This document shows, piece after piece, positions 40,649 to 40,992 of a stretch of DNA of 64,000 nucleotides. Source of the DNA: Actinomycetota bacterium (lineage in GTDB: Bacteria; Actinomycetota; UBA4738; HRBIN12); NCBI GenBank assembly GCA_035697485.1, contig DASSCU010000049.1:15195-79194 (forward strand), read 5' to 3'. Under the pieces are notes generated by a model that did not search any database, had not been told where the DNA came from, and worked only from the letters and a program-made list of their open reading frames with translations. Within the stretch, counting starts at the first letter, position 1, and each line of letters starts with the position of its first letter. Position numbers and translations under genes: made by a program.

Positions 40649-40983
40649 GTGTGGCCGCCGGTCCGGTACGCCTCGATGCACGCGCACCCGTCTGGACCGA
40701 CCGTGGCCGCGTGCGAGGTGTCGGCCGGCAGGTCGAGGCGGTCGCCGGCGGTCAGGTCGACGTCGCCGTCGTCGGTGTGGAAGACGATCGACCCCTCGAG
40801 GCAGAAGAGCACCTTGTGCGTGCCGTGATCGTGTCGGCCGTAGCGGTCGCCGGGGGCGTTCCCCCACGAACGCGGCGCGTCGCAGCCGTCCTCCTGGAAC
40901 GCCTCGAGCGCCTGCGCTCGGTCTGCGGTGCCGGGGGTCTTCGTCGCGCCCAGGTCCGTCTCCGTCGGGAAGGCTAGTCTGAA
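40645..40983 (-). pseudogene. cupin-domain ORF (both conserved cupin motifs intact) lacking any ATG/GTG/TTG start; candidate pseudogene or non-canonically initiated gene
   Basis: I translated this manually; it is not in the track because it has no start codon. The product is FRLAFPTETDLGATKTPGTADRAQALEAFQEDGCDAPRSWGNAPGDRYGRHDHGTHKVLFCLEGSIVFHTDDGDVDLTAGDRLDLPADTSHAATVGPDGCACIEAYRTGGHT*. Motif 1 (G-x5-HxH-x3-E-x6-G-like) and motif 2 (G-x5-P-x-G-x2-H) are present. The frame opens right after a TGA at 40984-40986 inside palindrome B, and its TGA overlaps the GT4 GTG start as GTGA. Confidence 0.4.
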
Positions 40984-40992
40984 TCAGACTAG
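40974..40992. promoter_or_regulatory. 19-bp perfect AT-rich palindrome CTAGTCTGAaTCAGACTAG (site B)
   Basis: It has 9-bp arms around a single central base and contains the accE-like gene's TAG stop. It sits immediately upstream of the cupin/GT4/GT2 gene series and shares CTAGTCT-N5-AGACTAG with the site at 61105. Confidence 0.5.

Follow-up and report, generated by a model that had tools for sequence, protein, structure and literature searches.

How transcripts end in high-GC Actinobacteria, which largely lack textbook terminators, is still debated, and the locus described here raises that question in a small compass: what is a short, perfect, AT-rich palindrome doing between two neighboring genes of a GC-rich member of the Actinomycetota? 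The window, that is, the whole 64,000-nucleotide stretch of DNA that was analyzed (71.0% GC), contains this palindrome between an accE-like gene and a group of cupin and glycosyltransferase genes. The preliminary description had offered several functions for it, namely an operator for a TetR, MerR or Xre-type regulator, an RNA hairpin acting as an insulator or terminator, and the footprint of an inserted element that had truncated the cupin gene. These possibilities are weighed below against the position of the palindrome, its occurrence in other genomes, and its fate among orthologous loci.

The Palindrome and Its Copies in the Window

The 19-bp perfect palindrome CTAGTCTGAATCAGACTAG is present at positions 40974-40992 (the core of site B), as had been described, and with the flanking G and C it extends to a perfect 21-bp palindrome at 40973-40993 (GCTAGTCTGAATCAGACTAGC); no strand is assigned to it or to its copies. 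The architecture said to be shared with a second locus, site C, is indeed found there, as CTAGTCTAAAATAGACTAG at 61105-61123 is an exact match to CTAGTCT-N5-AGACTAG. The 7-bp arms of site C are the same as those of site B, and an A-T pair occupies the eighth position of the stem (positions 8 and 12). A third, degenerate copy with two mismatches, site A, lies at 11668-11686 (CTACTCCAAGATAGACTAG). With up to two mismatches allowed, the pattern has these three matches in the window vs. 0.05 expected from shuffled sequence, and none of 100 shuffles gave three. The rarity of CTAG was likewise borne out, with 15 occurrences in the window vs. 53 expected.

The genes flanking sites A, B, and C are all on the minus strand, as judged by codon-position GC and Pfam matches, and at each of the three sites the TAG stop codon of the upstream gene falls within the right-hand CTAG. 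At site A, that gene is a small ORF (about 11683-11850, minus strand) encoding a hydrophobic, membrane-like peptide.

Occurrence Across Genomes

The genome scan covered one genome per species and 120 matches were listed, so the counts given here are lower bounds. Among the matches listed, 47 were in Actinomycetota MAGs with at least 64% GC, and about 29 more were in Acidobacteriota and a few other phyla; chance based on composition predicts matches chiefly in low-GC DNA. The preliminary description had allowed that the motif might be confined to two unconserved loci, and had proposed a wider search with positions tabulated relative to gene ends. At least 47 sites in high-GC Actinomycetota MAGs came from that search, with a bias toward gene 3′ ends. 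A scan of viral sequences fits chance, with 72 of the 80 fetched match loci (81 matches) at about 50% GC or less. A phage origin was rejected because the 16-base form had no match in IMG/VR and the 14-base matches were mostly in low-GC contigs, as by chance. Over the 47 Actinomycetota sites listed, the consensus is aCTAGTCTG-RNY-CAGACTAGt, which site B fits, with an excess of A at position -1 and of T at +1 (T at +1 in 25 of the 47). No second copy or near-variant was found in the 376 kb flanking these sites, and the copy number of the motif appears low.

Genes at the MAG loci (cited here by L number) were called with a codon-position GC heuristic, with manual checks of some loci, and an automatic script assigned the context of 49 sites (the 47 MAG sites plus sites B and C), leaving 22 of the 49 unclassified. 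The 47 MAG sites are overwhelmingly intergenic; about 13 lie between convergent genes, 19 between tandem genes, and at most two between divergent genes. A neighbor's stop codon lies inside the motif, as the TAG of CTAG or as a central TGA, at about 20 of the 47, and both convergent genes stop within it in L008, L042, L047, L051, L080, and L094, of which L008 and L080 are an orthologous convergent pair (sulfite oxidase and class-V aminotransferase). The motif recurs 3′ of parB, ubiB, an aminotransferase, a thiolase, and an M23 peptidase, and in eight MAGs it is found upstream of metG, where the preceding gene differs (rsmI or DUF853). The metG -10 element, TAnnAT, is positioned 8–9 nt before the ATG and at a distance from the motif that ranges from 13 to 40 nt; this variable spacing argues against an operator coupled to the promoter and for a boundary lying ahead of it. 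The motif was also considered as a promoter in its own right, with TAGACT serving as a -10 element on both strands, and was rejected as such because the Actinomycetota sites read CAGACT, many of them are convergent, and the real -10 is 13–40 nt away. It was rejected as parS as well, its sequence being unrelated to tGTTTCACGTGAAACa, and canonical parS is found separately in the parB loci L021, L047, and L074.

Several other features were seen at these loci. A near-canonical parS (GTTTCACGTGAAGC, one mismatch) is conserved just downstream of metG in seven MAGs (L026:2248, L039:2647, L060:3177, L071:3605, L075:3670, L117:4710, and L118:2929). This parS may be real and lie inside the start of the next gene, in which case the rsmI-metG locus would be near the origin. 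Upstream of metG in L113, a second CTAG-bounded, AT-rich palindrome (CTAGTGATAGATCCTATCTAG, 1369-1408 in plus-strand locus coordinates) shares with the motif the motif's terminal CTAG. In one MAG (SMAG_U2663), the sites at L035, L046, and L054 have the common centre GG(A/G)CC, which may reflect homogenisation within the genome, and at L035:1032-1066 a longer palindrome (TCCGAGGa...aCCTCGGA, about 35 bp) encloses the motif.

Genes and Start Codons at Site B

The minus-strand order at site B is accD, the accE-like gene, the palindrome, cupin, GT4, and GT2. The accD gene, encoding the acyl-CoA carboxylase beta subunit (carboxyltransferase), is at 41270-42898 (PF01039, E 7e-207), and is followed by the accE-like gene at 40989-41258, whose 89-aa product has no Pfam match. 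Beyond the palindrome come the cupin gene (40645-40953, 102 aa), GT4 (about 39518-40650), and GT2 (about 38545-39500), all on the minus strand. The reported overlap of the palindrome with two stop codons was found as described: the accE-like TAG (40991..40989) is part of the right-hand CTAG, with a second in-frame TAG in the other arm, and an in-frame TGA is located at 40986..40984 on the minus strand, past which the cupin ORF opens.

The cupin ORF had been regarded as start-less and as possibly truncated by an inserted element. Alignment with homologues (n = 1,831), which are typically 97–102 aa long, places their first residue (M, V, or L) exactly at a CTG in the window (40953..40951), 6 nt past a GGAG, and in close relatives the codon at this position is CTG, ACG, or GTG. 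The gene therefore has a start codon, and truncation is refuted, since the encoded cupin is complete. CTTCCC (40972..40967) and the GGAG Shine-Dalgarno sequence (40963..40960) lie between the palindrome and the CTG, both read on the minus strand and kept in the window, L127, L130, L132, L134, and L151; in the transcript, CUUC is able to pair with the GGAG ahead of the cupin CTG. Translation of the cupin may be weak, or may be coupled to termination of accE translation.

Site C and the nurA-herA-sbcDC Operon

At site C, the upstream gene (61120-61896, minus strand) encodes a secreted or lipoprotein-like product with no Pfam match, and its stop codon, TAG at 61122..61120, falls in the right-hand CTAG of the palindrome. 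Downstream, a promoter of the PafBC type (RecA-NDp), TGTCGG-N10-TACGAT, occupies 61061-61082 on the minus strand. It begins 22 nt past the palindrome, ends 7 nt before a leaderless ATG (61053..61051), and matches the PafBC consensus tGTCgg(N10)tA(N3)T (PMC8635444). The operon that it precedes (54651-61053, minus strand) comprises genes for a nurA-like protein (60093-61053), a HerA-like ATPase (58354-60100), SbcD (57160-58353), and SbcC (54651-57338). The nurA PafBC motif is kept in L207, L209, L211, and L212, and carries a T-to-C change (CGTC) in L208, L210, and L213; all of the site C relatives retain the order TGTC or CGTC, spacer, TAnnnT, 7 nt, and ATG. Because this motif is separate from the palindrome, nurA-herA-sbcDC has a damage-type leaderless promoter of its own. 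The combination of nurA-like, HerA-like, SbcD, and SbcC genes is an archaeal-style end-resection set, present in the window (54651-61082) and in L207–L213.

Orthologues of Sites B and C

Orthologous regions had been suggested as a place to look for presence or absence of the 19-mer, and in the relatives compared the sequence is kept, varied, decayed, replaced by another hairpin, or absent. For both sites the arms are held and the centre drifts. At site B, the motif is identical in L121–L123, and L127 and L128 differ by the central base only; L130 has CTAGTCTTATCCAGACTAC and L141 has CTAGTCTGAGCGAGACTAC. In L151, the sequence is CTAGTCTGCTCCGGACTAC, giving a U·G pair in the sense RNA, while L124 has CTAGTCCGTTACGGACTAG, giving a compensatory C-G pair. 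In L132, an unrelated GC-rich hairpin occupies the same spot and is followed by the same CTTCCC, GGAG, and CTG. More distant relatives have no hairpin there, with the end of accE still reading CGCTAG or CGGTAG.

Site C is represented by CTAGTCTGAGCGAGACTAG in L207, CTAGTCTGTTGCGGACTAG in L208, and CTAGTCTCCTCTGGACTAG in L211. In L208 and L211, where the right arm is GGACTAG, the upstream gene has been swapped for a divergent acetyltransferase and the motif has been retained. Decayed copies are present in L210 and L209, none is found in L212, and L213 has a GC-rich hairpin in place of the motif. The synteny break lies directly upstream of the palindrome, with the lipoprotein-like gene giving way to a divergent acetyltransferase-enolase block (L208:5286-5304, L210:~1435-1455, L211:~1486-1504), and in L210 the motif is decaying.

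Losses and gains of this kind invite the idea that the palindrome is a selfish or relic small insertion, REP-like or the footprint of an element that targets CTAG and duplicates CTAG or TA, with little function and tolerated because stop codons are regenerated. The same sequence does occur at unrelated loci and is bounded on both sides by CTAG, compatible with duplication of TA or CTAG, and the CGCTAG with which accE still ends in relatives without the motif could be an empty site. Sites are also gained and lost across modest distances, in L208, L210, and L211 the point where synteny is lost coincides exactly with the motif, the three sites of SMAG_U2663 have their centre in common, and in L113 the second CTAG-bounded palindrome adjoins the motif. 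However, the arms are held between species whose flanking proteins are 74–89% identical and whose synonymous sites have diverged, which points to selection, and on this sequence evidence a purely selfish insertion is disfavoured. Moreover, a search of about 770 kb yielded no larger element with such ends, the apparent copy number is low, the segment is swapped in relatives for another hairpin rather than simply missing, and an insert of 11–13 bp would be far below any known mobile element. No recurrent transposase was found among the genes neighboring the 47 sites. Taken together, the insertion explanation seems improbable.

Folding and Patterns of Substitution

In the sense RNA, the predicted fold is a hairpin with a stem of 8–9 bp and a three-base loop (9 bp and a triloop at site B). 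A 46-nt stretch at site B folds at -16.1 kcal/mol (z -2.4, sense RNA) and a 45–46-nt stretch at site C at -12.1 kcal/mol. At site A, where one mismatch becomes a U·G pair in the sense RNA and flanking pairs lengthen the stem, the value is about -21.1 kcal/mol (z -3.85). Complementarity beyond 21 bp is generally absent over the 47 sites and was seen only at site A and in L035. The stem of 8–10 bp has 38–56% GC vs. 88–100% in the other terminal hairpins of the window; the ends of other genes there have ordinary GC-rich hairpins, such as those at 11603, 36600, and 46052, exemplified by GGGGCCGCC-TTCG-GGCGGCCCC at 36600-36621. The terminator scan did not call the palindrome, which has no U-tract 3′ of the stem and is AU-rich; it is therefore no intrinsic terminator of the canonical type. 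A search of Rfam gave no match at the gathering threshold anywhere in the window; close to the palindrome there was only one to a miRNA, at the level of chance (E 4.9). A literature search on the arm sequences returned only primers and unrelated constructs.

Stop codons in hairpin arms are found elsewhere in the window. At 16756-16769, between convergent genes, CTGAGC-GG-GCTCAG holds TGA and TCA in its arms, and at 11557-11576 TCACGCCG-CCTC-CGGCGTGA ends a DUF4397 gene with the stop codon in the arms. In a genome this compact, placing the stop in the stem seems to be a general practice.

Covariation was assessed on 11 sites that had not been picked by the pattern. In this set, one stem pair is UA, UG, or CG and another is GC or AU, and 88.9% of cells pair, the same as in shuffles and not significant; covariation therefore does not separate recognition as RNA from recognition as DNA. 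The variable UA/UG/CG pair is the seventh of the stem (positions 7 and 13), which is U-A in six sites, U·G in four, and C-G in one. The one-sided change of A13 to G, which gives U·G in the sense RNA, is shared by L151, the L208/L211 clade, and site A; read on the opposite strand it would give a C·A mismatch. The L208 and L211 cases, which share ancestry, may reflect relaxed constraint after the rearrangement.

The arms are conserved as sequence, beyond what pairing alone would need. In a duplex-DNA reading, the palindrome would be, instead of an RNA hairpin, the binding site of a dimeric, sequence-specific protein at gene ends, for instance a transcriptional roadblock, a termination protein, or a nucleoid or topology factor. 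A perfect dyad of fixed length (21 bp), whose arms do not vary and whose purine-N-pyrimidine centre is symmetric, would suit such a protein, as would conservation at the level of sequence rather than pairing, flanks that generally add no pairing, and the low copy number, with none further in the 376 kb around the 47 sites; in L208 and L211 the motif was kept even after the upstream gene was swapped. Against it, no protein that might bind the motif is consistently encoded beside it, unrelated GC-rich hairpins take its place in L132 and L213, a compensatory C-G is seen in L124 and U·G states on the sense strand, and the sequence is not that of parS. In bacteria, no site dedicated to roadblocking at 3′ ends is known to us. 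We consider recognition as duplex DNA rather unlikely.

The Same Dyad in Acidobacteriota

Among the matches listed, about 29 loci carry CTAGTCT-(A/T-rich N5)-AGACTAG in the divergent promoter of a conserved three-gene cassette; a VOC (glyoxalase-like) gene is read from it in one direction, and a gene for a small helix-hairpin-helix (HhH) protein (DLISIGPAMLRDFELLGIRSV), followed by one for a PadR-like regulator, in the other. A PadR, VOC, or HhH gene is present at almost all of these Acidobacteria-type loci, and the sites are flanked by TTGACA and SD sequences. The cassette loci fall within L002–L119 (e.g., L114:2287-2305, L056:5937-5955, and L013:5725-5743), and the cassette was also seen in Gemmatimonadota (L010), Acidimicrobiia (L024), and Parvularculaceae (L068). 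From this arrangement, which is typical of operators, the acidobacterial dyad is probably a PadR operator, and for its A/T-centred form a reading of TAGACT as a -10 element is plausible. The dyad has the same 7-N5-7 layout as the Actinomycetota motif, and site C is one base off its common form. However, the acidobacterial sites are in divergent promoters together with the cassette, whereas the Actinomycetota sites are at gene 3′ ends without cassette genes. HMMs of PadR, VOC, and HhH had no match either in the window or at the 47 Actinomycetota loci, and a PadR-type operator was rejected there for lack of any cassette homologue. The acidobacterial PadR use is unrelated to the role of the motif in Actinomycetota, and the contrast between the two phyla warns against carrying motif functions from one to another.

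The cassette indicates that proteins reading this dyad exist, and it bears on the proposal of a classical TetR, MerR, Xre, or PadR operator controlling cupin-GT4-GT2, nurA-herA-sbcDC, and metG. The dyad symmetry on which that proposal drew is present; sites B and C and the metG sites are each upstream of a gene, and in the window, L207, L208, and L211 the site C motif is 39–40 nt from the nurA -10. Against it, some 13 sites are flanked by convergent genes and hardly any by divergent ones, the 13–40 nt to the metG -10 keep no fixed register, a complete PafBC-type promoter for nurA is already present 22 nt from the palindrome, and no regulator travels with the motif, the window and the 47 loci being without a PadR, VOC, or HhH homologue by HMM. 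The only DNA-binding regulator identified in the scanned ORFs is of the CRP family (32711-33460). As far as is known, binding sites of CRP-family proteins are even-spaced. The dyad of the palindrome is odd-centred, and the CRP-family regulator was accordingly judged unlikely as its binder. An operator at these loci is, overall, very improbable. The CRP-family gene lies within 4 kb of a gene fusing an MFS transporter to a cyclic-nucleotide-binding domain (36626-38314).

A Possible Boundary Hairpin at Transcript 3′ Ends

The palindrome exists, is conserved, is biased toward gene 3′ ends, and has stop codons embedded in it. From the sequence comparisons, the favoured reading, to which we would give roughly an even chance, is that in uncultured high-GC Actinomycetota from soil it forms a boundary hairpin, conserved in sequence, at the 3′ ends of transcripts; we infer that it acts at the RNA level, by termination or by stabilisation. 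This reading is preferred because of the 3′-end bias, the embedded stops, the substitute hairpins in relatives, and the downstream promoters that are separate from the motif (the metG -10 elements and the nurA PafBC motif). Other gene ends in the window also bear hairpins, albeit GC-rich ones. Of the functions first proposed, an RNA hairpin serving as insulator or terminator is thus the best supported, with the reservation that the stem is AU-rich and without a U-tract.

Once transcribed, the palindrome would fold into a hairpin of 8–10 bp with a three-base loop, and its perfect symmetry would give the same hairpin in transcripts arriving from either direction. Such a hairpin could end or attenuate read-through, shield the upstream mRNA from 3′-to-5′ decay, or both, and would thereby insulate the next promoter or the convergent neighbor. 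The outer CTAG and, when present, the central TGA would provide stops in two of three frames on both strands. With stops built into the palindrome, genes can run into it and reduce the intergenic space to a few bases. At site B, the hairpin would part accD-accE from the weakly initiated (CTG) cupin-GT4-GT2 genes. Because the cupin lacks a separate promoter and starts at a weak codon, full termination is unlikely there, and the hairpin of site B probably attenuates or stabilises between cistrons, short of a complete stop. The hairpin of site C would part the secreted-protein gene from the PafBC-type leaderless promoter of nurA-herA-sbcDC.

Some observations count against a boundary hairpin. There is no U-tract and the stem, at 38–56% GC, is weaker than the other terminal hairpins of the genome; conservation of the arms at the sequence level and the R-N-Y centre suit a dimeric DNA-binding protein equally well; and in L208 and L211, after the synteny break, the motif lies in a divergent intergenic region. 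Strict conservation of this sort implies a sequence-specific partner or a copying mechanism, and hints that any partner acts in trans. A more elaborate proposal, which we hold to be unlikely, is a factor-dependent, lineage-specific boundary system in which a dedicated protein reads the palindrome, either as duplex DNA in the manner of a roadblock or as an RNA hairpin. Such a system would define the 3′ ends of a few conserved units (such as those ending at parB, ubiB, and accE, and the unit before metG), and the palindrome might multiply by inserting itself where a stop codon lies in CTAG.

A short element that is fixed in sequence, comes back at gene ends, holds the stops of both neighbors, and is conserved in many uncultured genomes would offer a testable handle on boundary formation in uncultured Actinomycetota and a marker for operon annotation in MAGs, and might serve as a compact bidirectional "stop" part in synthetic biology.

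Comparison With Known Systems

Several known families of palindromes share part of this behavior. The REP/BIME elements of Enterobacteria are likewise a conserved palindrome family, extragenic, and found at 3′ ends and between convergent genes. REPs have been reported to stabilise the mRNA upstream of them and also to act in intercistronic regions. However, a REP is an imperfect palindrome of about 35 nt with GTAG on its 5′ side, its copies number in the hundreds, and a RAYT transposase is associated with it, whereas the motif is a perfect 21-bp palindrome with CTAG inside the stem and apparently few to tens of copies per genome, and no RAYT was seen. The inverted DUS pairs of Neisseria and the TRIT and MIRU elements of mycobacteria are likewise conserved sequences, specific to a lineage, that appear repeatedly as hairpins where genes end. 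A MIRU overlaps the stop codon and the start codon of the genes on either side of it, but MIRU and TRIT are much longer than the motif and unrelated to it in sequence. DUS are present in thousands of copies, also inside genes, and there is no evidence of either for the motif.

Canonical intrinsic terminators share with the motif a location at 3′ ends, but the motif lacks their GC-rich stem and U-tract. The motif also resembles the hairpin-only ("I-shaped") 3′ ends of Actinobacteria and the bidirectional intrinsic terminators found between convergent genes, which likewise consist of a palindromic stem-loop working in both directions, with little or no U-tract, between convergent genes; the minimal A/U flank of the motif (A at -1, T at +1) is also as in such ends. 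Ordinary hairpins of these kinds, those at 11603, 36600, and 46052 in the window among them, are GC-rich and idiosyncratic in sequence, whereas the motif is AU-rich, of fixed length, and near-identical across loci and genomes, and embeds the stop codons of the genes that it ends.
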